Positions 32,170 to 45,539 of a DNA stretch of 62,516 nucleotides are shown in pieces. Where the stretch lies: the IMG/VR virus record IMGVR_UViG_3300023199_000083, positions 1-62,516 of that record. The stretch is one strand, 5' to 3'. The notes beneath the pieces were generated by a model. That model did not search any database, had not been told where the DNA came from, and saw only the letters and a list, made by a program, of their open reading frames with translations. Source of the stretch: a virus (lineage: Duplodnaviria > Caudoviricetes). A program made the translations under genes and the position numbers. The first letter of the stretch is position 1. Every line of letters starts with the position of its first letter.

Positions 32170-32544
32170 TCACACTGTGTTCGTGCCCTCGACCCCTCTG
32201 GCCACCCTGTCGCGCGTTCGCTCGTGAAGCCACATCATCGCCTCTTGAATCTTCGTTAGCGCCAGGGCATTTTCTCGACACGCATACGGACCCGACTGGA
32301 ACCCCTTTAGGCGGTCAGCGACGATCGCCAACAACGCTTCGTTGCTCACGCCGTTGACACCGGTCTCGCCAATCGGTCCGTTCTGAAACTGGATGTTGCA
32401 CAGCTCCACATCATCCTCGTTCTTTAACCACTTGAGAATCTGGTACTCGTGGCACGCGCTGCCCTCGCCTGGTTCGTCAAGCACGTTGATGAGCAGCGCG
32501 TCGTTAATTCCGCTTGTCTTGTGGCTGGTTAATACTTTACCCAT
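32170..32544 (-). CDS. tad1: Thoeris anti-defence sponge protein Tad1
   Basis: PGEGSACHEYQI...IQFQNG...LLAIVADRLKGFQSGPYACRENALALTKIQEAMMWL..R..RGVEGT matches the Tad1 motif chain. Confidence 0.88.
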   Translation of the reverse strand: MGKVLTSHKTSGINDALLINVLDEPGEGSACHEYQILKWLKNEDDVELCNIQFQNGPIGETGVNGVSNEALLAIVADRLKGFQSGPYACRENALALTKIQEAMMWLHERTRDRVARGVEGTNTV

Positions 32545-32632
32545 GTCACTATCTCCCAAACGTGCCACCGAATAATGTGTTGCAACCGAGCGTCGATGGC
32601 TGCTGCTGTTGCAATTGCTGTCAATACAGCGT

Positions 32633-33332: not shown

Positions 33333-33944
33333 TCACTTCCCCTTGTCATCGCCCTTAAGTCCAAGCGTCTCCGCAAATCGGAGAAACGCGCGCTCGGCGT
33401 CGTCTGGCATCCAAAACCGGAAAATTACCTGCCGAGCCTCGATCTCTGCGAAACCTTGCCATTCTTCACGGTCATCGGGCCATAGCGTCAACTTCTCGGC
33501 TTTCAACATCATCCGGTCAAACCGCTTCACGGTGTCGGCCCACCGCTCGAAATTAATGCCAAACGATCCTGCTACGGCTTGTTCCATCCTCGCCTCGACA
33601 ACGGCGTAATCCGGCAACATAACTTTCAGCGGCTTGACCACATCACCAATGTACGCTTCAGCGGCATCGTGAAGGAACACGGCGCGCAACGCATCGCCGA
33701 CATACCCTTCGGAGATCGCCAGCGCCGTCGCATGGACGCAATGCTCGGCCAAGCTGTAGAACCTTGGACAATGGCACCCAAACCGGCATAGCTTGCTGAG
33801 CGCCGCTGCAATCGTGTCGATGTCAATCGCGTCCGGTGTCGGGTTCGCTAGATCAATGTAGTGACCTGCCGCCACCTTAATCGTGTTTCCACGGCAGCCC
33901 GTAAGATCGACCGGTGTTTTGGTTTTGGTCATTGTTGCTTCCAC
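33333..33944 (-). CDS. HD-domain phosphohydrolase (YfbR/YfdR-like nucleotidase)
   Basis: ALSKLCRF.CH...YSLAEHC...LHDAAEAYIGDVVKPLK. Confidence 0.88.
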   Translation of the reverse strand: MEATMTKTKTPVDLTGCRGNTIKVAAGHYIDLANPTPDAIDIDTIAAALSKLCRFGCHCPRFYSLAEHCVHATALAISEGYVGDALRAVFLHDAAEAYIGDVVKPLKVMLPDYAVVEARMEQAVAGSFGINFERWADTVKRFDRMMLKAEKLTLWPDDREEWQGFAEIEARQVIFRFWMPDDAERAFLRFAETLGLKGDDKGK

Positions 33945-34225
33945 TGAAAACTACTACAATAATCAGACTCCGCAACCATCGGCCTGGCCTGGACAATGCC
34001 GGGACTCACCACGCTTTCAACCGGCCCTAGGCCTGTAGTTTTTCGGTCTACCGCCGCTTGACGGTAAAGCACGACCGGGGGCTGTAGCATACACTCTCCC
34101 GCACCCGTCGGCACGTTCCCATACTCGACCGGCACAATGTCCCTGAACTTCGTCGGCTTGCGCGTCGTCTTCGCTCGATACCAGCGGCAGTTGATGCACG
34201 CCTGTTGTTTCGAATGGTCACTCAT
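33929..34225 (-). CDS. Small Cys-motif protein
   Basis: CINCRWY...GEC...PP...DYCSSF. Confidence 0.65.
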   Translation of the reverse strand: MSDHSKQQACINCRWYRAKTTRKPTKFRDIVPVEYGNVPTGAGECMLQPPVVLYRQAAVDRKTTGLGPVESVVSPGIVQARPMVAESDYCSSFQWKQQ

Positions 34226-34252
34226 TATGTTTACACTTCCAGAGAATGGTTG

Positions 34253-34465
34253 TCATGTGGCGTTCACACGGGGCCCTCCAAAATGCTCAGCGGCACACGT
34301 CGCGCAAAAGTACCCGCCGCAATAGTAGCACCGGAACGCTAACCGAACTGGCATCTCCGTACCACACTCACACGGCACTTTGCCCTCTTTTGCACATTTG
34401 AATTGCATCGCGATGAACTCCCGCCACGCTAGCTCTAAATCCGGGGTGGCCGCAATCCTTCGCAT
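34253..34465 (-). CDS. Zinc-finger cassette protein
   Basis: CECG...CYYCGGYFCATCAAEH; ATG directly after GTT. Confidence 0.6.
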   Translation of the reverse strand: MRRIAATPDLELAWREFIAMQFKCAKEGKVPCECGTEMPVRLAFRCYYCGGYFCATCAAEHFGGPRVNAT

Positions 34466-34550
34466 AACAATGCGATGCAACGGATCCGCGTTTATCGTCT
34501 TTCATAATGGTTAATCTTTTCTCCGGCCCCGGTTACGCGGGACGTTCTAC
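34462..34550 (-). repeat. attC-like site M4
   Basis: GTAGAAC...GTTATGC (minus); arms only partly matched. Confidence 0.75.
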
Positions 34551-34870
34551 GGCTCGATCGATCGCACCGCTGAAGCGATTGCAGCCGCGGCCGTCAATGT
34601 CCCGTTCACCTTGTCCAATGACTGACGACACTCACGGAGCATCACGGCAGCTTTCGGCAACCCTTGCCGGTTCGCGTCCACGATCAGATGTTCCAGAATG
34701 TCCTGCATCAAGTAAATCAACCGTTCCTCTTGCCCCACAGTTCGCGGATCGGTCACAAGTGATCCGTGATCGTTTCTCGCGTAGAGCAAGTCTGCAATCC
34801 GATGAATCGCCGTAGAACCATCGCATGCACGGGAGCCGTCGTCCACGTCGGTTTTTGAATCCATGTCCAT
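34547..34870 (-). CDS. Cassette protein (start inside the attC loop)
   Basis: GGAGAG-ATG in the M3 loop; stop overlaps M4. Confidence 0.65.
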   Translation of the reverse strand: MDMDSKTDVDDGSRACDGSTAIHRIADLLYARNDHGSLVTDPRTVGQEERLIYLMQDILEHLIVDANRQGLPKAAVMLRECRQSLDKVNGTLTAAAAIASAVRSIEP

Positions 34871-34901
34871 CTCTCCGGCCCCGTGATGCGGGGCGTTATC
34901 C
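34812..34901 (-). repeat. attC-like site M3
   Basis: GGATAAC-GCCCCGCATCACGGGGCCG...CGGCTCCCGTGCATGCGATG-GTTCTAC. Confidence 0.85.
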
Positions 34902-34903
34902 AG

Positions 34904-35161
34904 CTATTCACACTGGCATTCTTCTACTGCCTTTTCGCATTGTCCGCAGCGAGAGACTCGCCATCGCCCAACCGCGATCAATTCGTTTGCTTCTGCACAC
35001 GATTCAGCCGTGGGGCATGTCGCGTGCAAATACTGATTCGGGTTCCGTCCGTCGTTTTCGCTCATCGGCCGCACTGTGCTAATCGTATCGCCACGCCTGC
35101 ACCACCGCTGGATAACAAGCGGATCAACCGGAGTTGCCGACGACGCTGTTTTTGTATGCAT
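34904..35161 (-). CDS. Cassette protein (start inside the attC loop)
   Basis: GGGAGAG-ATT-ATG in the M2 loop. Confidence 0.6.
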   Translation of the reverse strand: MHTKTASSATPVDPLVIQRWCRRGDTISTVRPMSENDGRNPNQYLHATCPTAESCAEANELIAVGRWRVSRCGQCEKAVEECQCE

Positions 35162-35200
35162 AATCTCTCCCGGCAACCCGGTTATCCTTGGACGTTATCT
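35110..35200 (-). repeat. attC-like site M2
   Basis: AGATAAC...GGATAACCGGGTTGCCG...CGGCAACTCCGGTTGATCC...GTTATCC. Confidence 0.88.
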
Positions 35201-35470
35201 GGATGATTCCCGCTTAGCTTTGATTCGTCGCATTGCCTCACGTTGCATCCGTTTCGGTTCCTTACACGCTTCCCAGTCGCCGGACATCTCATCGACGTAC
35301 AGCATATTGGTCGGCCCAAATCTGACAACGAGCCGCTTCGGCGGTCCTGCGCGGTCGTATGACTCTTGACCTACCAACACGACAACCGGCTTATCCAGCC
35401 TCAACAGTCCTGTCGGTGTTGGGCACTTCTCATCAGGCAAAAACCAGTACCAACCGGGTCGCTTCGGCAT
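35195..35470 (-). CDS. Cassette protein (PxxPGWYW motif)
   Basis: MPKRPGWYWF; TAA stop lies within AGATAAC. Confidence 0.7.
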   Translation of the reverse strand: MPKRPGWYWFLPDEKCPTPTGLLRLDKPVVVLVGQESYDRAGPPKRLVVRFGPTNMLYVDEMSGDWEACKEPKRMQREAMRRIKAKRESSR

Positions 35471-35478
35471 ACGTCACC

Positions 35479-35570
35479 AGATAACAATCACATGCACTCA
35501 AAGCCGCGAAGACGTGCTCGTGCAAAATGGTCAATCAACCGTCGAGACCCGGTAAACACAAACGTTATCC
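35479..35570 (-). repeat. attC-like site M1 (chimeric arms)
   Basis: GGATAAC...GTTATCT (minus). Confidence 0.7.
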
Positions 35571-35762
35571 GCCAGGATTCACCACGGAACGCACTGCCGC
35601 ATCTTTGGCTTCCAACAGTTGTCGCAACGATACGGTCCTTTCGGGGCCGCCGTCGATCGTTTCGACGATAGTTGCCGCAAGGTCGTGGAACGGCTTCGAC
35701 ACGCCTTGCAGATGTTCCGGCAAATGACCGTACTCAAACCACTTCATCATTCGCTCTTCCAT
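35565..35762 (-). CDS. Small helical-hairpin protein, possibly an Acb2/Tad1-like sponge
   Basis: FEYGHLPEHLQGVSKPF..LA...GPERTVSLRQLLEAKDAAVR; AAGGAG RBS. Confidence 0.6.
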   Translation of the reverse strand: MEERMMKWFEYGHLPEHLQGVSKPFHDLAATIVETIDGGPERTVSLRQLLEAKDAAVRSVVNPGG

Positions 35763-36069
35763 TTCCAACTCCTTCACTGAAGTGTCCACCAGTTGCCACA
35801 GCGCCACGAACGAGTCGCCGAGCGGAAAAAAATACATGTGCCGGCTGGTCACGTAAAACGGATAACAAAGCGATGAACGACGAGCCACCACCGCCCTCGT
35901 GATTCGACGCGGGTTCGTCGTAGATCGCTGTTTGATTGCTCATCGTTTTTCTTTCGTGGCCCGTGGCCGGGTTATCGCAGACGCTATTTGATTCACAAAA
36001 GCCCCTTGCGGGAACCGATCCCGCTCCTCCGGTCGACCCGGTACTGCACATCCTGTTGGCTCGCTACTC

Positions 36070-36098
36070 AACATAACCCATCCACAACCCCAGTTAAC
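36070..36098 (-). promoter_or_regulatory. GTTAAC-family promoter for the minus accessory arm
   Basis: GTTAAC-17-TATGTT. Confidence 0.6.
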
Positions 36099-36605
36099 AT
36101 TCTACAGGCAAAATTTCACCCCGTTTCATTGACCACAAAGCCGCAACCCAAATTCAACGTTCAAATTTTTGGAAATGCAACCTCATGAACAGATTGACGG
36201 TCACTATCTCAGAATCGTGCCGGAAGCCAGGCCCAAAAAGAATCCAAATCAGGAAAACTGCCGACATCGAACCTCTCTCATTTGCAAGGACGTTTTGGTG
36301 TCTGGAGCCGGTGGGGGGCACCCCCTCGCTCGCGACCCCCCCCCCTCCCCTATGATTTGACCGTACGGGCTGGTGGATTCAGCCCCGGTAGCCTGCCAGC
36401 CTGGCGCTATGCCGGACCCGCCAAGGGCGTCGATTCCCCCCTTAGCCCCGCACCAGGCCCCGCCGCACCTTCACCAATTCTTCACCGCATGCGTTCATTC
36501 CCCTGTCCCGAACGTGAGCCAGCTCACGCTCACGGCCCGTTTTGGCAACGGATGCCAGTGTACCGGTCGGCTAGTACACCGAGAGCCCCCCGGCGCCGGG
36601 AGCCG

Positions 36606-37034
36606 CTACGGGGGCGGATCCTCCCCCTGCGGCCGGGTCCGGCGCTGGACCGATGGCGACGTGAGCCCCGGATGGAGCGGGCAGTCGGCACGAGGGCAGC
36701 GACAGCCGCGGGGCCGGCCCTGGCGCCCGAGCCCGCCACGGATGCCGGCGGCCTGCTCAGCCTCCATTCGGGCGCGGGTTGCTGCGTATTGGCGGCGACG
36801 GGCGTCCACATGGGCTACTCGGTCGATGCAGTCGTCGAGGTGGACCAGGACCCGGCCATCGGCGAGTGTCAGCGTGCGGACGCGGGCTAGACGGACCCAT
36901 TCTCTGACAGTGCTATAGCTCCGACCGCACGCTACGCTCGCGAAACTCACCGAGCTGTATCGTGAATAGGCTCGTTTGCGCTCTTTGGCACGTTTTCTTG
37001 CACGTTTTCGGCGTTTTGCTCGTTTCTTGGCCAT
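36606..37034 (-). CDS. Basic-tailed winged-HTH-like DNA-binding protein
   Basis: K/R-rich N-terminus, then ASVACGRSYSTVREWVRLARV...GRVLVHLDD. Confidence 0.55.
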   Translation of the reverse strand: MAKKRAKRRKRARKRAKERKRAYSRYSSVSFASVACGRSYSTVREWVRLARVRTLTLADGRVLVHLDDCIDRVAHVDARRRQYAATRARMEAEQAAGIRGGLGRQGRPRGCRCPRADCPLHPGLTSPSVQRRTRPQGEDPPP

Positions 37035-37090
37035 TGTACTATATCAGACCCGGGCGCTTTGTCCGACTCTCGATTTTCCTCTAATTTTCT

Positions 37091-37119
37091 GTTAACCGTC
37101 GTCGCAAACTGGGTATCCT
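37091..37119 (+). promoter_or_regulatory. GTTAAC-family promoter
   Basis: GTTAAC-17-TATCCT. Confidence 0.6.
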
Positions 37120-37193
37120 ACTGTAGCCCGCACCGGAGCGGGAAGTAGTTGACACCACACTTAGGGCCGCGCAAGCGGCGGGAGGTTGACCGG

Positions 37194-37427
37194 ATGATGA
37201 TGAAATGCAAACACGCCACCACCACCACCGACGCCACGAGCGTCCGCTGCTACGCCGGGCCCGTGGCGGTAGCGGGACACGAGAACCGTGCCGCGCACGG
37301 CTGCATCACCCAGGTAGAGAGGTGCCTGGACTGCGGCGCGGAGCGGCGCGTCAACGTCAACGGCGTCCACTACGAGGTGGGGCCGTGGGGCCCGTCGCGG
37401 TCCCAACTGGCCCGCGAGGCCGAATAA
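37194..37427 (+). CDS. Hypothetical protein
   Basis: GGAGG RBS; CKH...CLDCGAERRVN. Confidence 0.6.
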   Translation: MMMKCKHATTTTDATSVRCYAGPVAVAGHENRAAHGCITQVERCLDCGAERRVNVNGVHYEVGPWGPSRSQLAREAE

Positions 37428-37708
37428 TCGCCAATCGCCAAGAGACAACTTTAACAGGGGAAACCAGGGGAAACCATGTTTCATCAATCAAACCTAGGCG
37501 CATTCGCGCCGGTCAGCTGTGCCGACATGGACGGATACATTCCCGAGGCCGGAGACGGACCATGGGATCTCTCGTACGATAGGGCAAGAAGATGAAAACC
37601 GAAATGAATCGACCCGACAAGGGGTGGGCGGGCGTCAACGCCGACCCCGACGACATCGCCGACGACATCGCCGATGCGATCACTGACGACGAAATGGAGG
37701 CTGCCCGG

Positions 37709-37796
37709 TAGAGCCAGCGGTAACCGAGTCGCCGCCAAGAGAATCAGATTTCAGAATCAGGTGGACCGGCGACTTCGGTTCACCGCATGGTTATAA
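37709..37796 (+). repeat. attC-like site P1 (degenerate left core)
   Basis: GCGGTAACCGAGTCGCC...GGCGACTTCGGTTCACCGCATG-GTTATAA. Confidence 0.75.
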
Positions 37797-37804
37797 GGAA
37801 AACA

Positions 37805-38137
37805 ATGGCCATCTACAACGCAGAAATCACCCGAATCGACACTAACGAAATCAGCAACATTGGTCGCGTTGCAAATAGCGGAAAGATGAACATGTTCCGA
37901 GCAATGCAAGCCAACAGCGAAACGGTTTGCAACCTGTTTGACGATTGCGGCAATTTTGAGTTCGTCTGGAACACTTCCGCGAAGGTGTGGGAGTTTTTCA
38001 ACGAGGCTGGTGAATTGGTCGGACGCATGAAGGCAGAACGCGACACAGAAGCCGAGCACGCCAAAAAGGTTGCCTATTATAACGAATGCAAAGCAGCATA
38101 CGAGGCAGCCAATGTCGCGGACGCCGGGCAAAGGTAA
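37805..38137 (+). CDS. Cassette hypothetical protein
   Basis: AAGGA RBS after P1. Confidence 0.7.
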   Translation: MAIYNAEITRIDTNEISNIGRVANSGKMNMFRAMQANSETVCNLFDDCGNFEFVWNTSAKVWEFFNEAGELVGRMKAERDTEAEHAKKVAYYNECKAAYEAANVADAGQR

Positions 38138-38327
38138 GCGGATCGGGCGTCCGCCAAAGGAAAACGCAAAGGTTGCGATTTCGGGGCGACGATCAGGCAG
38201 AAATCGAGGAAGTGTCACCATGCGACATTGAGGAACGTGCGGGGCGCGGGTCGGTTTGGCGGCGAACGCTAGCCGGCGAGCTGATCGACGATCGATATCA
38301 CGGCACCGTTTCGGTCGAGTGATTTTT

Positions 38328-38356
38328 GTTAACCGACCCGGCCCAGCGGTTATATT
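38328..38356 (+). promoter_or_regulatory. GTTAAC-family promoter; leader nearly identical to 44343-44400
   Basis: GTTAAC-17-TATATT-AGGG.AGACAACAACACCATTTT. Confidence 0.7.
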
Positions 38357-38395
38357 AGGGTAGACAACAACACCATTTTACAGGGGAAGAAGACG

Positions 38396-38941
38396 ATGAC
38401 CGACATTTATTTTCAGGCCGACGATTTTTCTACGGTATCCCTCGACGGGGGATACCGGATGTGGCGACGCAACGAGGGCCAGGTCGCGTCATTTGGCGGC
38501 TACCACGCCCGCGGCAAGATCGTGGGCGGCGAGCATTGGACCGGCCGCGACATCGCGACCGGCGGCATGGGCAACAGCGGTGTGCGGGTGATCGTTCCGG
38601 TGAGCCGCGAGGCTCGCGCGCTCGTGCGGATGCACGTCACCGAGTGCTGGGTCAATCGGTACGGCATCTCGTACAGAGAGTCCGATGCCTTGTACGCGCA
38701 CCGCGGCCCGTACAAATACGAGCTGATCGCGGACATCTGCGCCGCGATCAATGACGAGGCGTGCCACGATGCGTTCTTGCGATTCCCCGGCGTTGGGCCG
38801 GGACTGCACCACGACTGGTGCGCTCGATGGGGCGACGTGGTTGCCCCATATCTTACCCGTTCATGGCCCCGCAACGAGGCCTTGATTGAGGCGGTGAATC
38901 ACGTGATTCGCGCAACGTCGCGTGAGTTCCAGTCCGCCTAA
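38396..38941 (+). CDS. Hypothetical protein
   Basis: Follows the promoter; TAA lies within GCCTAAC. Confidence 0.7.
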   Translation: MTDIYFQADDFSTVSLDGGYRMWRRNEGQVASFGGYHARGKIVGGEHWTGRDIATGGMGNSGVRVIVPVSREARALVRMHVTECWVNRYGISYRESDALYAHRGPYKYELIADICAAINDEACHDAFLRFPGVGPGLHHDWCARWGDVVAPYLTRSWPRNEALIEAVNHVIRATSREFQSA

Positions 38942-39044
38942 CGCTTGGGATCAACGGGCACCGACGAAAAAGGTTTGAACTACGGAAGATTCATGGAACT
39001 ACAAAACAACGCCACCGGTGCTCCGTTGCATCCCATTGTTACTA
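38936..39044 (+). repeat. attC-like site P2
   Basis: GCCTAAC..TGGGATCAACGGGCACCG...CGGTGCTCCGTTGCATCCCATT-GTTACTA. Confidence 0.9.
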
Positions 39045-39712
39045 TGCCGTTCGCCCCGTATTACGACGAGGACGGGATTACGATCTACAACGCGGATTGC
39101 CGGAAAGTGCTGCCGTGGCTGGCGAGGGTTGACGTATTGCTGACCGATCCACCATACGGCATCGGTGCAGCGTCCGAGACGTTTACGCGCAAAGGAAAAC
39201 AGACCGGAAAATCGTTGGCGGTGAGTGGCGTGAATTACGAGCCAAGCAAATGGGACAGCGAACCGCCACCGCGTTGGTTTCTCGATGCCGCGCAAGAGTG
39301 TGCGGAAACGTCGATACTGTGGGGCGGGAATTATTACGGGTTGCCGTCGTCGTCGTGTTGGTTGGTGTGGGACAAGGACAACGGCGAAAACCTGTACGCG
39401 GATTGCGAGTTGGCGTGGACGAACATGCAGCGGGCGGTGCGGAAATTTAAGTGGAAGTGGCACGGCATGTTGCAGGAGAACATGGGCGACAAGAAAGAGC
39501 ATCGAGTTCACCCGACGCAAAAGCCGTTGGCGTTGATGCGGTGGTGTTTGTCGTTGGTTCCAGATGCGGAAACAGTGTTAGACCCGTTCGCGGGCAGCGG
39601 CACCACGTTGGTGGCCGCAAGGTTAGAAGGCCGCAAGGCTATTGGGATCGAGATCAGCGAGAAGTATTGCGAGTCGGCGGCAAACCGGCTGGCACAACGG
39701 ACGTTGTTCTAG
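39044..39712 (+). CDS. DNA N4/N6 methyltransferase (beta class)
   Basis: LTDPPYG...HPTQKP...VLDPFAGSGTT...GIEI; alternative start at 38993 in the attC loop. Confidence 0.95.
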   Translation: MPFAPYYDEDGITIYNADCRKVLPWLARVDVLLTDPPYGIGAASETFTRKGKQTGKSLAVSGVNYEPSKWDSEPPPRWFLDAAQECAETSILWGGNYYGLPSSSCWLVWDKDNGENLYADCELAWTNMQRAVRKFKWKWHGMLQENMGDKKEHRVHPTQKPLALMRWCLSLVPDAETVLDPFAGSGTTLVAARLEGRKAIGIEISEKYCESAANRLAQRTLF

Positions 39713-39716
39713 GTCA

Positions 39717-39809
39717 TGGTAACGCTGGCCGTCACCGGGCGGCGGGAGAAAATTATGACTACAAAAAAAACGCAGCTACCGCCGCTCCGTGTTCACGCAA
39801 TTGTTATGC
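39717..39809 (+). repeat. attC-like site P3
   Basis: TGGTAAC...GGGCGGCGG...CCGCCGCTCC...GTTATGC. Confidence 0.85.
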
Positions 39810-40126
39810 GCCCCGGTCCCGGCTGGAAACACGTTACAGGGCCAGTGTGGGACCACGTAAGCGGAGTGCGATTGCACATGAGCGGACTGGTTCGGTTGCC
39901 GGATGGCAACACTGTGTCGGCCAACCAGTGTCCGCAATCGAAGTCCGCCGACCGTGCCGTGCGAATTGCCGGAAGCCGTCGCCGTGGACTGATGGTGTGG
40001 GCGCTGTGGTGCCTCGATCATCGTTGCAAGTTTGACGAGGTGTACTATGGCCATCAGTGCAATGTCTGTGGATTGTTTTTCGCGCACGGCTGCGCCCCGT
40101 GGGATGCCGTGCCTGAGTACGCATAA
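39755..40126 (+). CDS. Cassette protein (start inside the attC loop)
   Basis: GGGAGA-AAATT-ATG. Confidence 0.65.
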   Translation: MTTKKTQLPPLRVHAIVMRPGPGWKHVTGPVWDHVSGVRLHMSGLVRLPDGNTVSANQCPQSKSADRAVRIAGSRRRGLMVWALWCLDHRCKFDEVYYGHQCNVCGLFFAHGCAPWDAVPEYA

Positions 40127-40210
40127 CGCCTAAATTCACCGGGCCGCCCCCGGTGATCGTTGAATTGAGAACCCGCGCCGGGGGCGGCCCGGTGCAATTT
40201 TTGGTTATCC
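40121..40210 (+). repeat. attC-like site P4
   Basis: GCATAAC..AAATTCACCGGGCCGCCCCCGG...CCGGGGGCGGCCCGGTGCAATTT..GTTATCC. Confidence 0.92.
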
Positions 40211-40237
40211 GCTGTTTGCGGGGCCGCGAAAGGAAAG

Positions 40238-40528
40238 ATGGACATGTTTATCGCGTATCAGAAGTGGCAAAATCCGAGCTACATGAGTGGGCCGCGCTAC
40301 TCGCGCCGAGTTTACGGCACAGGAGAGACGGAGCAAGAAGCGCTTTTTTTCGCGACCCACTACCGGCGCAATGGTGAGTGGTGGACGTATGGGTCTGGGA
40401 GTGGACACCCCAACGCCTCAGACTTGAGCGTCGAGGAAGTGGACGACGACGAAGTGGACGACGACGAAGTGGACGTCGAGGAAGTGGACGACTACGACTA
40501 CGACGACGAAGTGGACGACTACGAATGA
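40238..40528 (+). CDS. Cassette protein with an acidic EVDDD-repeat tail
   Basis: AAGGA RBS; 15-nt GAAGTGGACGACGAC repeats. Confidence 0.7.
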   Translation: MDMFIAYQKWQNPSYMSGPRYSRRVYGTGETEQEALFFATHYRRNGEWWTYGSGSGHPNASDLSVEEVDDDEVDDDEVDVEEVDDYDYDDEVDDYE

Positions 40529-40589
40529 TCCGCCATTTTTCCGTTGCCGTGTCCCGTGTCTTCGGATGCGGGGCGCGGCGCGGTTTGGC

Positions 40590-40680
40590 GGATAACGCTA
40601 CCCGTAACCGGGCCGCGAGGGTTGAGCCGACCACGCGAGAACGCCCGCAATCGCGGCTCCGGTGCAATTTTTTGTTATGC
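40590..40680 (+). repeat. attC-like site P5 (chimeric)
   Basis: GGATAAC...GTTATGC; left arm as P6, right arm as P4. Confidence 0.85.
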
Positions 40681-41183
40681 GGAATGGGTTTGCAGGTCAC
40701 GAAAACACAACGGCCAACCATCACGATTGGATTACGCCGCGCCACATCGTTGAAGCGTTGGGGCCGTTTAATCTGGACCCGTGCCAATCGTTGAATCAAC
40801 CGTGGAAGTGTGCCGAAAGTGGATTTACGGTCAATGATGATGGGTTGTCGAAATTGTGGCGGGGCGTTGTGTGGATGAATCCACCATACGGCAGGGCGAT
40901 CGAGAAATGGATGCGACGGCTTGCCGAGCACGGGAACGGAATCGGGTTGATGTTTGCGAGAACCGATACGCGGTGGTTTCAGGATCACTGCCAGCATCAC
41001 GCGGGCATGCTGTTCCTGCGTGGTCGTGTTCGGTTTCACGATGGAAACGGCAACCAGTTCGACAGGAAGGGCGGCGGGGCGTGTGCAACGTCGCCAAGTG
41101 TGTTGGTCGCGTTCGGTGACGAGTGCGGGCAACGATTGATTGCTTGCGGTTTGGACGGCTTACGGGTCGTGCCTTCCGCATAA
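40677..41183 (+). CDS. Phage N6-adenine DNA methyltransferase (Dam-like)
   Basis: WITP..IVEALGPFNLDPC...DGL...VWMNPPYG...ARTDTRWFQ...FLRGRVRF. Confidence 0.92.
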   Translation: MRNGFAGHENTTANHHDWITPRHIVEALGPFNLDPCQSLNQPWKCAESGFTVNDDGLSKLWRGVVWMNPPYGRAIEKWMRRLAEHGNGIGLMFARTDTRWFQDHCQHHAGMLFLRGRVRFHDGNGNQFDRKGGGACATSPSVLVAFGDECGQRLIACGLDGLRVVPSA

Positions 41184-41269
41184 CGCTACCCGTAACCGGG
41201 CGGCGACGAGAAACATTGATTTGCGATTCACGCGGCCATCGCCGCTCCGTGTGCATCGGGTTGTTATAC
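41178..41269 (+). repeat. attC-like site P6
   Basis: GCATAAC..ACCCG..GGGCGGCGA...TCGCCGCTCC..CGGGTT-GTTATAC. Confidence 0.88.
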
Positions 41270-41287
41270 GGCGGCGGATCTTGGGAG

Positions 41288-41512
41288 ATGAAAATGAGTC
41301 AGTACTATCACGCTGGCGCGATGGACGAAAATAACGATGTGCTGTGGAGCGATCATACCCGCCGTTCCGCGGCGGCAGCGGAACGGGAAGCGTTAGAGAT
41401 GGCCCGCAAAACTGGCAGGAGAGCAATAGTGGAAACGTGGGACCGCTTGCACGGGCTACGCCCAGGAGACGCCAATGCGGTCAATGATGCGTACATGGTT
41501 GAGTCCGTATAA
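41288..41512 (+). CDS. Cassette hypothetical protein
   Basis: GGGAG RBS; TAA lies within GTATAAC. Confidence 0.65.
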   Translation: MKMSQYYHAGAMDENNDVLWSDHTRRSAAAAEREALEMARKTGRRAIVETWDRLHGLRPGDANAVNDAYMVESV

Positions 41513-41615
41513 CGTCAGCGATCAGCGGGGCCGGGGAGCAACCAAAGAGGTAAACCATGCGTGAAGATTCAGAACAGCCGGAAGATTTCGGCTCCGTTGC
41601 ATCGCATTGTTCGTC
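41507..41615 (+). repeat. attC-like site P7
   Basis: GTATAAC..GCGATCAGCGGGGCCG...CGGCTCCGTTGCATCGCATT-GTTCGTC. Confidence 0.9.
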
Positions 41616-41796
41616 GGCTCAATCTGTGCAGCGATGTCGCATACAGTCGGACACGCGATACGGTGCGGTTCACCGTCTCGGGCGGTTGGGGACCGAGACA
41701 GACTGCGGATTGAATATAAGCGACGGTGGCTGGTGGGTTTTGGGCAATGAATTAAAACACGCAGTTACATGTCGAGCATGCTTGAAAGTTCGATGA
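41557..41796 (+). CDS. Cassette protein (H...CG...CxxC; start inside the attC loop)
   Basis: GAGG-TAAACC-ATG in the P7 loop. Confidence 0.65.
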   Translation: MREDSEQPEDFGSVASHCSSAQSVQRCRIQSDTRYGAVHRLGRLGTETDCGLNISDGGWWVLGNELKHAVTCRACLKVR

Positions 41797-41896
41797 ACGT
41801 CAAGGATAACCGAGCGGAGATTAAACGTGGAAAACCAAGAGACTCAAAGGGCAACCGAGACGGACAATTCCGCTTCGGTTCATCCGTTTGTTATCT
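41792..41896 (+). repeat. attC-like site P8
   Basis: GATGAAC..GGATAACCGAGCGGA...TCCGCTTCGGTTCATCC..GTTATCT. Confidence 0.9.
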
Positions 41897-42021
41897 GGCA
41901 ATGTCGTTGCGGCTGGATGGTGGAAGATGTCTGTTACCAACAGGCACGAATAGATTTCGAATGTCCGAAATGCCACGATCGCAAGTTCAGCGAATTTCTG
42001 CGTCGAAATTTAGCCAGATAA
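41827..42021 (+). CDS. Cassette zinc-ribbon protein (start inside the attC loop)
   Basis: GGAG-ATTAAAC-GTG; CRCG...CPKC. Confidence 0.65.
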   Translation: MENQETQRATETDNSASVHPFVIWQCRCGWMVEDVCYQQARIDFECPKCHDRKFSEFLRRNLAR

Positions 42022-42113
42022 CGGTTTGATTAACCGGCTCGATGGGCGAGCCGGACGTTGACTTACTACAAAACCTGACCGCCCATCGAGTCCGGTTCAA
42101 TCAATTGTTCGCA
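42016..42113 (+). repeat. attC-like site P9
   Basis: AGATAAC..TTGATTAACCGGCTCGATGGGCG...CGCCCATCGAGTCCGGTTCAATCAATT-GTTCGCA. Confidence 0.92.
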
Positions 42114-42121
42114 GGTGAATC

Positions 42122-42442
42122 ATGGTTGACGCAGCCACGAAAAAACGAGTTACGCAACAGCACGTAGACGCGATCGCAGCAAATTCCGGCCCGGTATATG
42201 GCATCCGCTTGATTCGCAGTTTGCCGATCGGCACATCAGGAATGACGCAGGCGATGCCGGGGCGTGATGATCTTGCGAAAGTTCGTGACGTCAGCGAGAG
42301 AACGGCAGCCGGTTATGAGGTGCTGTTGAGCCACTATCGTCAGCAGCAAGATGAGGTCAAGCGATTGACGGCGTTGATACGCAATGTCATTGCAGGCCGG
42401 TGGAGCGTGACAGATCTACAGGAAGCAATCGGGGACGTGTAG
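42122..42442 (+). CDS. Cassette hypothetical protein
   Basis: AGGTG RBS after P9. Confidence 0.65.
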   Translation: MVDAATKKRVTQQHVDAIAANSGPVYGIRLIRSLPIGTSGMTQAMPGRDDLAKVRDVSERTAAGYEVLLSHYRQQQDEVKRLTALIRNVIAGRWSVTDLQEAIGDV

Positions 42443-42607
42443 TTCTTGCGAACAAGAAGTATACAGGCGTCTGTATAAAACGGTGGATTGATATGGATAA
42501 CGACCAAGTTGACCGGGCCGATTGCTAAGGAGAAAAGGTGAACAGTAAAAAAATCTTTGACAGTTCGGGTGAGCCGGCCAGAAATTAACAATCGAAGGGA
42601 AACGAAA

Positions 42608-42838
42608 ATGACGACCGCAACGAAAATTTACCGAGGGATGATCGAGACGCCCGCATTGCCCCGACTGCGCGAAATCGCCAAGGAGTGCGGCGGCGAGGTC
42701 GAGGAGATGCGCGATTTCACGAACGTCTGGCCAAACCGCAATACCGATCCTGGTACGCGACACCGACGATTAGGCCGCACCCTGGTGGCGCAGGGCTGGG
42801 ACGGCAACGTGCTGTACGGTGTGACCTGCTGGGATTGA
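42608..42838 (+). CDS. Hypothetical protein
   Basis: AAGGGA RBS. Confidence 0.6.
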   Translation: MTTATKIYRGMIETPALPRLREIAKECGGEVEEMRDFTNVWPNRNTDPGTRHRRLGRTLVAQGWDGNVLYGVTCWD

Positions 42839-42849
42839 GGAGCCGAGAC

Positions 42850-43044
42850 GTGGCGAAGAAAAAGCGAGGACGAGGCCGGCCGGCGACGGGCAAGACACCC
42901 GTCCGCCAGTTGGGCCGGATCGACGATGAGAAGTGGAGATTGATCGTCCGCGCGGCGGAACTGTGCGGGCAGTCGATCACCGAGTTTTGTATGGAAACGC
43001 TGGTCAGACGTGCCAAGCGTGTCATCCGTGACCGTGACGGATAA
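42850..43044 (+). CDS. Ribbon-helix-helix-like regulator
   Basis: GRGRPATGKTP..LGRIDDEKW..IVRAAELCGQSITEF. Confidence 0.65.
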   Translation: MAKKKRGRGRPATGKTPVRQLGRIDDEKWRLIVRAAELCGQSITEFCMETLVRRAKRVIRDRDG

Positions 43045-43130
43045 CGCTTGGGATAACCGAGTGGCGACGAAAGATTTTACCAGTGGATTGACGCGGACTT
43101 CGCGGCTCCGTGTTCACCGCTTTGTTATGC
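43039..43130 (+). repeat. attC-like site P11
   Basis: GGATAAC...GTTATGC; imperfect arms. Confidence 0.75.
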
Positions 43131-43148
43131 GGCGAATGGAGTGATCTC

Positions 43149-43385
43149 ATGACCCCGAATTGCATCCTCTTCGTGCGAGACGGGCTACTCTCGTTTCGTA
43201 GGAACACTCAGACGCTTCCGCAGGGCGCTGTGCCCCTCGAATACGATTGCACAAATCTGGCACACCGCGAGGTACGTAGAGTCGCGGAAGATTGGAACTG
43301 GGAGTGGTGTGGTAACTCCTACCCCGCACGTCTGCCGATCGCCCCCGATACATGCGAGAGGGCGGTTGGCGTCGATACCATGTAG
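43149..43385 (+). CDS. Cassette hypothetical protein
   Basis: GGAG RBS after P11. Confidence 0.6.
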   Translation: MTPNCILFVRDGLLSFRRNTQTLPQGAVPLEYDCTNLAHREVRRVAEDWNWEWCGNSYPARLPIAPDTCERAVGVDTM

Positions 43386-43434
43386 AGCCACATAACTAAG
43401 ATTGGATGTTCACGAAACGGATTTCGTGAAGATC

Positions 43435-43520
43435 GCATAACGTCCGCGATAACGCGGCCGAGGGAAACTATGAGCAAATCAGAAAGCGTTGACGGCTCGC
43501 GTTCATCGCCGTTGTTATGT
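43435..43520 (+). repeat. attC-like site P12
   Basis: GCATAAC..GCGATAACGCGGCCG...CGGCTCGCGTTCATCGCC..GTTATGT. Confidence 0.88.
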
Positions 43521-43955
43521 GCTGATCCCACGGATTACGTCGTCACGGTGCCGATGAATTTCACCTGCGAAGACGCGCCCGGCATGAAGGGTCTCGACGC
43601 TTGGATTGCGGAAGGTGACGCAGCAGGCGATCTAAGCAGCGGCCAAGAGTGGTGGTTCACGACCTACGGTGTGTTGCCCGTATTCGTGCCTGGATGCCGC
43701 CTCTACGTCGTGTGCGAGGATCGGTTGCGAGGTTACGCACCAATCACGCGGATCATGTTCGACGAGTCGCGTGTGAAATATGGCAAGGCCCCGCTGGCGT
43801 TCGTCCGTGAAGGTGGGGCCGTGGCCGTGACGATCGGCGAGAAGATTACCGGATTTCGGGGCTACCGTCGCCGATGGTGGGACCGTGCCGACGAGATACC
43901 GTTTCCCGATTGGAAAACGGCAGACCGAAGAAACCGTGCCCGTGGTGGCACATAA
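43470..43955 (+). CDS. Cassette protein, possibly PUA/EVE-like fold (start inside the attC loop)
   Basis: WIAEGDAAG...PGCRLYVV..RLRGYAP...ITGFRGYR. Confidence 0.6.
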   Translation: MSKSESVDGSRSSPLLCADPTDYVVTVPMNFTCEDAPGMKGLDAWIAEGDAAGDLSSGQEWWFTTYGVLPVFVPGCRLYVVCEDRLRGYAPITRIMFDESRVKYGKAPLAFVREGGAVAVTIGEKITGFRGYRRRWWDRADEIPFPDWKTADRRNRARGGT

Positions 43956-44039
43956 CGCTTGTGATATTTCGTTGCGAGCGAACGATTAACCATTGAGAGA
44001 AAACATGAACGAGCAATCGAAATCATCACATTGTTCTAC
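43950..44039 (+). repeat. attC-like site P13
   Basis: ACATAAC..TGTGATATTTCGTTGC...GCAATCGAAATCATCACATT-GTTCTAC. Confidence 0.88.
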
Positions 44040-44229
44040 GTCCCTTGCCGACGCAATGGAGACGGTGGAACTGTGGGTAGATTTATGGGCCGACGATCAG
44101 GCAGAAATCGAGGAAGTGTCACCATGCGACATTGAGGAACGTAAGGTCATTGCGGCAGTGCATGTCGTGTTGAACGCGATCAAGTCAAAGGGGGCCGTCC
44201 CCGATGTGGGTGATGGCTACCGGTTGTGA
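44005..44229 (+). CDS. Cassette protein (start inside the attC loop)
   Basis: GAGAG-AAAAC-ATG in the P13 loop. Confidence 0.55.
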   Translation: MNEQSKSSHCSTSLADAMETVELWVDLWADDQAEIEEVSPCDIEERKVIAAVHVVLNAIKSKGAVPDVGDGYRL

Positions 44230-44342
44230 TCTCACAAAGTTGCCGAGTCGTATTGGGACGGCCAATCGTGGCGAGAACTAACGCGACACAATCCAGCGGT
44301 ATAACGACTGAGATTCGGCTCGGCAGGAAGCCGAGAATCTTT

Positions 44343-44371
44343 GTTAACCGCACCTGCCCAGCGGTTATATT
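44343..44371 (+). promoter_or_regulatory. GTTAAC-family promoter
   Basis: GTTAAC-17-TATATT. Confidence 0.7.
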
Positions 44372-44408
44372 AGGGCAGACAACAACACCATTTTTTAAAG
44401 GGGAAACC

Positions 44409-45044
44409 ATGAAGACGAGTAAGACAGTTCAGAAAATCTACCAATCAGCACGCGAGAGCCGAGACGATAGCGGCCGGGCATGGCTGGCAACAAAGGACGT
44501 GGCCGCATTGATCCGGCACCGGCTCCGGGTGGCGTTCCCGGGCGTCAAATTCTCAGTCCGGGCCAAAGTCTACAGCGGCGGCTCTTCGGTCCATATCTAC
44601 TGGTCCGATGGCCCGGTCGATTTCGAGGTCGAGCAAGTCGCGAACGCCTATTCATTCGGCGGGTTCGATGGCATGATCGATCTGAAATATCACAATGACA
44701 ATTGGCTGCTTCCCGACGGATCGATGGATCCGGCCTGGTCGCCGGGTACCGAAAGAAGCGGCGGGTCCTATCCCAACTATGCCACCGACTGCCCCGCACC
44801 GGGCGCCGTTATGGTGAGCGGCGGTCCGGATCACGTTTTCGCCTATCGTCGGATCAGCGAGCAGCACAAGCAGCGACTGATGGTCGAGGCCGGGCGCCGC
44901 TACGGATTCGATCACAACGAGTATTCGGACGAATCGCGGGACTTCGTTCCGGGCATGAACGCCTCGGCATGGATGCTGGCAGTCAAACTTGAAGCGCAGA
45001 CACGACGGGAAGAGCTGGAGAAAAACGAACAGGCGACCGCCTAA
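44409..45044 (+). CDS. LPD29-like domain protein
   Basis: AALIRHRLRVAFPGVKFSVR..YSGGSSVHIYWSDGP...FDGMIDLK. Confidence 0.75.
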   Translation: MKTSKTVQKIYQSARESRDDSGRAWLATKDVAALIRHRLRVAFPGVKFSVRAKVYSGGSSVHIYWSDGPVDFEVEQVANAYSFGGFDGMIDLKYHNDNWLLPDGSMDPAWSPGTERSGGSYPNYATDCPAPGAVMVSGGPDHVFAYRRISEQHKQRLMVEAGRRYGFDHNEYSDESRDFVPGMNASAWMLAVKLEAQTRREELEKNEQATA

Positions 45045-45131
45045 GCAGTATTTCCCTGCCCGCTCCGGGCCGTTGTGGTGTCGGCATTCCAAACCGGGGC
45101 GGGTTCTTTTTACAATAGCGAAACGGTAACG

Positions 45132-45539
45132 ATGAGCAACACAAGCGAACTTGGTACGCGACCCCGCAGCTACGAGGAAGGCAAAAAGTTAAGGGCGGAG
45201 AACATCCGCACGACATTTCCTCACGCAGTTGCGTGGATCCACAAGCACATGCTTCAAGGCGACCGTGCTGGCAAGTTTGACTGGTCGCTGGTGCTCGCTG
45301 ACGATTCGCGCCATGGGGCAATCGTCGATCTCGGCTACATTGCGACGGACGATTTCGAACAGCTGGCAATCGTGCGGGAGCTGTTCGTCGGCTGTCGTGC
45401 GATACGACGGGGAGATGGGCGCACGTGCCACTACACCGTCGAGGACCCGTCAGACACCGGCGTATTGTTTCGCTGGCACGTGTACGCACAGCCCCGCCTA
45501 CAATCGATGGATGAAACGGACACGGTAACGATAGTATAG
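45132..45539 (+). CDS. Hypothetical protein
   Basis: Operon context. Confidence 0.55.
   Translation: MSNTSELGTRPRSYEEGKKLRAENIRTTFPHAVAWIHKHMLQGDRAGKFDWSLVLADDSRHGAIVDLGYIATDDFEQLAIVRELFVGCRAIRRGDGRTCHYTVEDPSDTGVLFRWHVYAQPRLQSMDETDTVTIV

Follow-up and report, generated by a model that had tools for sequence, protein, structure and literature searches.

The 62,516-bp virus record IMGVR_UViG_3300023199_000083 of IMG/VR (Duplodnaviria; Caudoviricetes), which was analyzed over its whole length and is called the window below, carries two arrays of integron-type recombination sites (attC) in its accessory arms. We consider it probable, at roughly 0.8, that 17 attC sites of a Planctomycetota type delimit about 16 one-gene cassettes of reversed polarity in arms that have no integrase gene of their own, and that these cassettes are exchanged between the second A and the C of the left-box AAC (hereafter AA/C), probably by an integron integrase (IntI) of the host.

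According to the proposed arrangement, the 17 sites would split the two accessory arms, which are transcribed divergently, into about 16 cassettes of one gene each, and the strand with mRNA sense would be the attC bottom strand, which is the strand that is folded and cut. Read along this strand, a cassette would consist of C, left arm, loop, right arm, GTTATnnn, open reading frame (ORF), and nnnATAA. The loop would often hold a ribosome-binding site (RBS) and a start codon, and the gene would often stop at the crossover by means of the TAA of ATAA/C. Cassettes would be gained and lost by site-specific exchange at the left-box AA/C, the integrase presumably being provided in trans by a host that is likely a member of the Planctomycetota. 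A recurrent promoter-like motif suggests that phage promoters at the inner ends of the two arms would drive their expression.

Inventory of the attC sites

A covariance model (R1) was trained on nine window sites of similar length and used to scan the whole window with filters off. The scan returned 17 forward-strand matches with E <= 0.02, all of them inside positions 34459-44042, while the next best match elsewhere in the window had an E-value of 0.78. Eight of the 17 sites were outside the training set (plus strand 37703, 38933, 41504, 41789, 42013, 43432, and 43947; minus strand 35857). The plus array comprises 12 sites between 37703 and 44042 and the minus array five sites between 35992 and 34459, with 78-110 nt from AAC to GTT. 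As a control, the model was applied to 1.19 Mb from 80 other phage loci and gave no matches; a scan of the window with Rfam at gathering thresholds also gave none, the coverage of attC sites by Rfam not being established. A preliminary description made from the letters of this DNA had counted about 15 imperfect palindromes in divergent arrays; the divergent hairpin arrays stand, the count by the covariance model is 17, and each of the nine box pairs quoted there (six on the plus strand and three on the minus strand) was recovered at the position given for it. The sites are as follows, in the order of each array.

37703-37799, plus strand: pA, attC-like site, first in the plus array (44.1 bits, E 4.5e-8; untrained)
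38933-39047, plus strand: p0, attC (39-40.6 bits); the loop has a possible start of the N6_N4 methyltransferase gene
39714-39812, plus strand: p1, attC (79.8 bits); RBS and ATG 39755 in the loop
40118-40213, plus strand: p2, attC (74.6 bits)
40587-40683, plus strand: p3, attC (88.7 bits), upstream of the Dam cassette
41175-41272, plus strand: p4, attC (89 bits)
41504-41618, plus strand: p5, attC (26.7 bits); ATG 41557 in the loop
41789-41899, plus strand: p6, attC (42.9 bits); true left box GATGAAC, with AAC at 41796-41798
42013-42116, plus strand: p7, attC (37.5 bits)
42445-42452, plus strand: orphan left box TTGCGAAC, complementary to the p7 right box GTTCGCA; no R1 match
43036-43133, plus strand: p8, attC (82 bits)
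43432-43523, plus strand: p9, attC (43.8 bits); ATG 43470 in the loop
43947-44042, plus strand: p10, attC (47.1 bits), last in the plus array; ATG 44005 in the loop
35857-35992, minus strand: m0, attC-like site, first in the minus array (19.8 bits over 35857-35954)
35476-35573, minus strand: m1, attC (72.2 bits)
35107-35203, minus strand: m2, attC (82.6 bits)
34809-34904, minus strand: m3, attC (78.6 bits)
34459-34553, minus strand: m4, attC (69.2 bits), last in the minus array

The left (R') box of pA is degenerate, with TAGAGC in place of ATAACG, as is that of m0, where ATAGCG replaces ATAACG. The stretch that begins with the orphan box (42445-42607) contains a short hairpin and then the remains of a site, whose left arm is well preserved (about 42494-42525) but which has neither a GTT nor a right arm that can be recognized; two arrays may have been joined to form the plus array. 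A hairpin of about 57 nt running from AAC to GTT was also observed on the plus strand at 44296-44352, between the last cassette and a promoter-like motif. It has a terminator-like score and reached 8.8 bits with the attC model.

Anatomy of the sites

The structure of the sites was assessed in an alignment (A4) of 69 viral sites taken from the window and six other records. AAC was kept in 67-68 of these sites and GTT in 68. The long helix consists of 18 pairs, 17 of them with compensatory changes, and 92% of the cells are paired; the observed covariation was reached by none of 500 shuffles, and six of the helix pairs lie outside the model and were therefore not fitted to it. A central spacer of 4-5 nt facing 3 nt showed no supported pairing, and a variable terminal loop caps the hairpin. 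The 3' arm of the coding strand bears an unpaired T in 68 of the 69 sites and, eight alignment columns nearer to GTT, a second unpaired base (C in 49 sites, G in 19, and A in one); the two are seven bases apart in the 52 of 69 sites that have the intervening gap. The left-arm columns facing these bases were gaps in 67-68 of the sites. Unpaired right-arm bases had also been noted in the preliminary description. The coding strand folded better than its complement at 48 of the 69 sites (mean difference 0.78 kcal/mol, p 8e-5) and is the purine-richer strand of the sites.

These features match those given for canonical attC sites such as attCaadA7 and VCR in the text of Nivina et al. (2016, PMC5027507), where the bottom strand carries AAC in the R' box and extrahelical bases near L'' on the opposite arm, has a central spacer free of pairing and a terminal structure that varies, and is both more stable and purine-richer. 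Since the unpaired bases of the phage sites lie on the arm opposite AAC, the coding strand is the bottom strand. The canonical sites described there have two or three extrahelical bases near L'', and the window sites have two on the corresponding arm. The canonical boxes read RYYYAAC and GTTRRRY, whereas the consensus in the viral sites is SATAAC and GTTATS, with an A at the place where RYYYAAC expects Y; the window sites span about 80-110 nt, and their bottom strand is coding.

Insertion of circular cassettes by exchange inside a box predicts crossed complementarity, so that the right box of a site should pair with the left box of its neighbor. We measured this run from the right box of each site to the left box of the next one, in 64 adjacent site pairs from seven viral records. 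It extended on average 5.56 nt beyond GTT/AAC and reached at least 6 nt in 46 of the 64 pairs, compared with 4% of 20,000 random pairings. The corresponding run within a site had a mean of 1.65 nt and never attained 6 nt (0/72). Rare box variants co-vary in the same manner, GTTCGCC with GGCGAAC and GTTGTGC with GCACAAC. The observation that a right box pairs with the far end of the same cassette, made originally on the window, therefore holds across these records (46/64 versus 0/72 within sites). From this anatomy and from the bacterial integrons described below, we concluded that the hairpins are genuine integron attC recombination sites; the earlier view of two divergent arrays in which integron-type attC sites bound single-gene cassettes is supported.

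Crossover position and natural variants

The preliminary description had assumed crossover at the right-box G/TT and expected related arrays to break there. Neither assumption was borne out, and the evidence places the crossover at the left-box AA/C. Eight shared stretches of at least 140 nt were found between arrays of different phages, and no right-box GTT forms a boundary of any of them. For five the end falls at a left-box AAC (+2 to +15), and three of these five also start at a left-box AAC (-2 to -11) with the whole upstream site included, at 94-99% identity. The remaining three of the eight are uninformative on boundaries.

Variants of the plus array are present in contigs assembled from two further samples within the same study. 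The joint 41510->41796 skips 285 nt with seven ambiguous letters (AACGTCA) and removes the p5 cassette from AAC 41511 to AAC 41796. The joint 42017->43437, present likewise in these samples and starting at p7, skips 1419 nt with six ambiguous letters (ATAACG), and a single 362-nt contig holds both joints. Both are exact AAC-to-AAC losses of whole units, and the 6-7 shared letters are too few for an assembler misjoin. A third variant is without the cassette encoding a Dam-type methyltransferase, which lies between two sites with identical left arms (p3 and p4); the variant junction 40617->41235 falls inside these shared arms. In runs X2 and X3, contig depth over the plus array (38712-44000) was one fifth to one half of that of the flanks and the assembly was fragmented; the minus array (34424-36773) was recovered from these runs as one intact contig at full depth, and its structure is identical in three samples. 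The plus array may be the variable array of the phage.

Together with the bottom-strand geometry of the sites and their orientation toward intI in bacteria, these boundaries lead us to place the crossover at the AA/C of the left box on the coding strand; every attC is then assigned to the gene that follows it. Placement at G/TT would put the attC behind the gene and would provide RBS and start codon from the site of a neighbor. The earlier proposal that a cassette is translated from its neighbor's site is corrected by this assignment, as the site is the cassette's own.

Reversed polarity of the cassette genes

Gene polarity was scored by the strand of the longest ORF in each cassette, for 374 cassettes in all. 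The first viral set (63 cassettes) comprised 37 forward, 4 reverse, and 22 ambiguous cassettes, and a second viral set from independent loci (110 cassettes) comprised 55, 16, and 39, respectively. In bacterial arrays of the same attC family (201 cassettes), only 20 were forward and 142 reverse, with 39 ambiguous. The unambiguous counts are thus 92 forward and 20 reverse for viral cassettes versus 20 and 142 for bacterial ones (Fisher p 1e-32).

The ends of the genes agree with the same orientation. Of 62 viral cassettes, 31 have a stop codon that terminates precisely at AA/C (the TAA of ATAAC), and in 39 the earliest start codon of the ORF falls within the upstream site; in the window, an RBS and ATG can be read in the loops of p1, p5, p9, p10, m2, m3, and m4. 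Both methyltransferase Pfam matches of the window are on the bottom-strand (coding) side. A canonical cassette has its ORF on the top strand, read away from intI and the cassette promoter, and its own attC downstream; the phage cassettes have neither. They are the mirror image of bacterial cassettes, with the attC ahead of its own gene.

An integrase cannot alter how a gene is oriented toward its attC, as both are parts of one cassette, so the bias means that a separate pool of cassettes, made or selected differently, exists on the phage side. Three possible reasons for the reversal can be envisaged. The cut strand would be the non-template strand of transcription and possibly the lagging-strand template, and its folding may be favored in a phage that is replicating and heavily transcribed. 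Once captured in a host integron, a phage cassette would point at the cassette promoter and remain silent. The design would also give one reading direction to a whole phage arm, together with intI where it is present.

Cassette-encoded proteins and promoter-like motifs

The ORFs of the cassettes and the promoter-like motifs are listed below.

38945-39712, plus strand: DNA methyltransferase N6_N4_Mtase (PF01555, E 2.3e-23)
40662-41183, plus strand: Dam-type N6-adenine methyltransferase (PF05869, E 1.7e-11); its stop codon TAA ends at the p4 AA/C
42850-43044, plus strand: TacA1-like antitoxin domain protein (PF08681, E 9.5e-9); stop codon in the p8 left box
39755-40126, 40238-40528, 41294-41512, 41557-41796, and 41827-42021, plus strand: cassette ORFs without a family
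42122-42442, 42608-42838, 43149-43385, 43470-43955, and 44005-44229, plus strand: further cassette ORFs without a family
35565-35891, 35195-35470, 34904-35176, 34547-34870, and 34253-34480, minus strand: cassette ORFs without a family
36070-36098, minus strand: promoter-like motif GTTAAC-N17-TATNNT heading the minus array
37091-37119, plus strand: promoter-like motif GTTAAC-N17-TATNNT heading the plus arm
38328-38356, plus strand: second promoter-like motif, within the plus arm and ahead of the ORF at 38396

The matches to N6_N4_Mtase, Dam, and the TacA1-like antitoxin support the phage-type cargo that had been proposed for these arrays. No toxin partner of the TacA1-like protein was seen. Two methyltransferases and an orphan antitoxin-like protein suggest, as judged from their predicted domains, that the cargo is at least partly devoted to counter-defense. 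PHROGs had no family for 10 cassette proteins, and Pfam had none for the remaining cassette ORFs at the thresholds used or for the ORFs of the central region; the ORF 41827-42021 has a sub-threshold zinc-ribbon match. The protein of the plus-strand ORF 40238-40528 ends in an acidic tandem-repeat tail of the EVDD type, and a contig from runs X2 and X3 skips 40246-40521, which is nearly all of this ORF.

The motif GTTAAC-N17-TATNNT has seven matches in the window (11224, 12270, 36070, 37091, 38328, 44343, and 53621) versus 0.05 expected. Four of them flank or head the cassette arms, and the copies that head the arrays face outward from a center at 36.1-37.1 kb.

Search for a recombinase and related viral arrays

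Searches of the window in six frames gave no match to PF00589, TIGR02249, PF00239, or PF01797, which cover tyrosine and serine recombinases, IntI, and Y1 transposases, and Pfam scans of the other window ORFs revealed no recombinase. These results, in particular those for PF00589 and TIGR02249, uphold the earlier remark that no tyrosine recombinase is recognizable in this phage; PF00589 had no match in five other array-bearing viral records either. The window contains no intI, and no attI-like end was identified in it, so that it does not have the layout of a complete integron. In the definition quoted by Qi et al. (2023, PMC9892861), at least two close attC sites with no intI nearby form a cluster of attC sites lacking an integrase (CALIN). 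With 12 and 5 attC sites and no intI in a complete record, the two arrays of the window are two CALINs.

At least six other viral records share the cassette design, and arrays occur in dozens of IMG/VR contigs. One of the records (G002) belongs to a true phage that encodes a capsid protease, a portal, and a terminase; directly upstream of its array (L121:10814-13188), a ParB-like and a PAPS-reductase-like protein are encoded, a pair that looks like a DNA-modification module. The array-bearing records share with the window just two cassette genes and two weak helicase-primase matches. As no common phage enzyme is visible across them, a host IntI acting in trans is the best candidate, and it is a plausible one because bacterial genomes with this attC family carry IntI genes. 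The recombining enzyme is thus most probably the host integron integrase.

A different situation was found in a 39,783-bp IMG/VR contig (L274:1-4660), where eight sites of this attC family are followed by a 389-aa IntI-like ORF with 40% identity over 274 aa to a Planctomycetota IntI. All cassette ORFs of this contig are on the strand of the integrase gene and point toward it. The locus may represent a complete integron carried by a phage, with its cassettes reversed, and the IntI-like gene implies that some phages may bring their own enzyme.

Bacterial integrons with the same attC family

A pattern scan of contigs representing one genome per species matched at least 120 stretches. Among the 80 matches listed, 49 were by record title from Planctomycetota, 19 from Acidobacteriota, 4 from cyanobacteria, and 8 from others. 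The R1 model found 293 matches in those 80 listed loci, the densest having about 20 within 8 kb, and scored up to 76 bits in bacterial arrays beside intI. An IntI match was present in all five of the site-bearing genomes examined, in four of them above the NCBIfam cut-off (TIGR02249). At all four intI loci examined the array adjoins intI, with the intI 5' end facing the array, and model-forward sites run toward intI in the four adjacent arrays. This is the regular layout flipped, and the model-forward orientation is therefore that of the bottom strand. The bacterial ORFs point away from intI at all four loci. An 'inverted integrase' layout, as mentioned in PMC13323075, was considered as a confounder and ruled out, the layout being regular at 4/4 intI loci.

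The Planctomycetota loci (L260-L264) are sedentary chromosomal integrons that resemble the phage arrays in their attC family, in the exchange of boxes between neighbors, and in their one-gene cassettes. Unlike the phage arrays, they have an adjacent intI, and most of their genes occupy the top strand and are followed by the attC (142/201). A comparison of 212 ORFs with 84 bacterial loci (0.55 Mb of arrays) gave one match, which is inside a site, and no shared cassette protein. Sequence and structure of attC are taxon-specific, and a Planctomycetes model has been built, as stated in the text of Ghaly et al. (2021). On the basis of this specificity, the host of the phage is a probable member of the Planctomycetota.

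Two further observations were made in the bacterial set. Five Acidobacteriota loci (L134, L136, L163, L190, and L199; Pyrinomonadaceae/Blastocatellia) contain closely packed arrays in which a related but longer site, of about 107-118 nt and scoring 29-46 bits, recurs every 0.5-0.7 kb. Beside a bacterial intI, at L261:11186-11710 on the minus strand, three sites follow each other at 120 nt with no ORF between them, and these look like empty cassettes.

Phage genome and its relatives

The phage record of 62,516 bp is the whole IMG/VR virus record, has a completeness rating of 100%, and possesses an exact 127-bp direct terminal repeat. It is a complete phage, as the preliminary description had it. 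It encodes TerL, a portal protein fused to a sigma-factor-like segment, a helicase-primase, a PDDEXK-like nuclease (DUF3799), an AAA ATPase, a subtilase, and an Acb2/Tad1-hairpin protein. The portal fusion is a single 1419-aa ORF (26028-30287, minus strand), in which residues 100-709 match the portal family and residues 706-883 an RNA polymerase sigma factor family. The 132-aa protein with the Acb2/Tad1 hairpin domain (32170-32568, minus strand; PF24729, E 7e-7) is encoded just beyond the minus array and is likely a sponge for defense signaling nucleotides. The GC skew of the window switches at about 37 kb.

Flanking proteins were used as queries for relatives of the phage. The protein 44226-45044 found no viral relative, and the protein 33333-33944 found 80 phage loci, none with attC sites. 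The closest relative locus (L001, 61% identity) showed no sites in its record, which is 58% complete. No syntenic relative, with or without arrays, was found by these queries.

Alternative explanations

Four other accounts of the arrays were weighed against cassette exchange at AA/C by a host IntI. The phage could be self-sufficient if a phage-encoded recombinase of an unrecognized family used the sites. The window has many ORFs without a family, and the IntI-like gene beside the array of L274 attests that phage-side enzymes exist in this system. We nevertheless regard this as unlikely, given that the six-frame recombinase searches of the window and those with PF00589 in the five array-bearing records returned nothing, that outside the cassettes the window has no protein in common with those records apart from the two weak helicase-primase matches, and that the anatomy of the sites is exactly that of the IntI substrates found beside bacterial IntI genes. 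Little credence is given to homologous or microhomology recombination between hairpins, for instance by a PDDEXK exonuclease system, in place of site-specific exchange. Such a system could draw on the DUF3799 PDDEXK-like protein and the AAA ATPase, and it would fit the junction inside the identical p3 and p4 left arms and the several joints away from AAC. It would not explain why the two clean deletions share 6-7 nt alone, which are the AAC box, why the cassettes shared by unrelated phages break at AAC, or how boxes come to pair with the far end of their own cassette (46/64), which homologous exchange between hairpins would not yield.

That the hairpins now serve mainly as regulatory RNA or DNA elements (leaders for translation initiation, stabilizers of RNA, or weak terminators, for instance) in arrays that are immobile fossils of integron activity is very improbable. 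Start codons and RBS in the loops, the decay of AAC at the head of each array, the one terminator-like site, and the constancy of the minus array in three samples would be in keeping with it. Against this, samples from a single study differ in their plus arrays by entire cassettes, cassettes of 94-99% identity are found in different neighborhoods in other phages, and a purely RNA role would not demand AAC and GTT boxes and unpaired bases kept in 67-68 of 69 sites. It is hardly conceivable that the contig is a chimera of a phage with a bacterial integron fragment, even though the site family is bacterial and repeats can mislead assemblers. Contigs of the probable source run span 33500-45500 and reach into the flanks, with long pieces overlapping by 8 nt at 38209-38216; the record has its exact 127-bp terminal repeat, and phage-type promoter motifs head both arrays. 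Moreover, the gene polarity is opposite to that of bacterial arrays, none of the cassette proteins turned up in 0.55 Mb of these arrays, and at least six other viral records, one of them with capsid, portal, and terminase, have the same design.

Several points weigh against cassette exchange at AA/C by a host IntI, or against parts of it. Some joints in the variant contigs are not at AAC (38943->41589, 40680->41796, 40630->42578, 43130->43354, and 40246->40521), and the variants are known from assembled contigs of one study rather than raw reads. The left-box consensus S-A-T-A-A-C is no strict RYYYAAC, the AAC is degenerate in the first site of each array, and a search of both outer ends revealed no orphan box able to pair with the last site. 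The longest-ORF test was ambiguous in 100 of 374 cassettes, 20 of 173 viral cassettes scored as reverse, and the intI-adjacent bacterial array L260 is mixed, with 3 of 4 forward. Most cassette proteins are family-less, and domains hint at counter-defense for three alone. We infer the action of a host IntI on the phage sites, and a Planctomycetota host is suggested solely by the type of attC. With TerL as query, 32 of 401 Planctomycetota genomes matched, at just 30-38% identity, which gave no host assignment.

Comparison with known systems and significance

Clusters of attC sites without an integrase in phages, including methyltransferase cassettes, are already published. The text of Qi et al. 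(2023, PMC9892861) reports 17 CALINs, each with at least two attC sites, in 10,705 NCBI phage genomes, and recombination by IntI1 of five of the six phage attCs tested, sites of virulent phages included. Those CALINs resemble the window in being integrase-less attC clusters, some of them in virulent phages, in having N6_N4_Mtase cassettes, and in the proposal of a bacterial IntI as the enzyme. Their cassettes are described as oriented as in bacteria or divergent, whereas those of the window are systematically reversed; in the text of the article, the word 'opposite' does not occur, and neither of the two uses of 'orientation' concerns gene polarity. The window goes beyond them in that a single phage has 17 sites, these belong to a Planctomycetota-type family, their loops contain start codons, and natural variants differ by exact cassettes. 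Neither the reversal nor arrays of such size, the link to Planctomycetota integrons, or natural variants of this kind were found in the literature searched, the supplementary tables of Qi et al. aside; Supplementary Table S1 of that article may hold larger arrays and gene orientations that bear on novelty.

The arrays may also be compared with a phage system of another kind. Mobile promoter-stem-loop (PeSL) cassettes, whose small accessory genes may shuffle as units, were reportedly described in T4-type phages by Arbiol and co-workers in 2010. PeSL cassettes share with the window the bounding of small phage accessory genes by repeated stem-loops, but they combine a promoter with a hairpin and would act through homologous exchange, and they are not known to have AAC/GTT boxes, extrahelical bases, or box swaps.

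Integrons are bacterial gene-capture devices, and chromosomal integrons have lately been viewed as stores of anti-phage defense genes. The phage analyzed here stores its accessory genes in the same cassette format and with the same attC family as its likely hosts. The consistent reversal implies a phage-side pool, either made or selected there, and this bears on the unsolved origin of cassettes. The loss of whole cassettes at the predicted crossover in natural variants represents turnover in nature.

As a broader proposal, which we advance tentatively, phages of Planctomycetota, and probably those of other phyla too, may keep a separate pool of mirror-image cassettes that is reshuffled during infection by the host integrase. 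If host IntI is the enzyme, phage infection would be a route of integron activity and cassette traffic that is uncounted in current integron surveys, because these look for top-strand genes beside intI. If the proposal is true, the integron would be a two-sided platform of the arms race, on which hosts bank defense genes and phages bank counter-defense genes in the same format.

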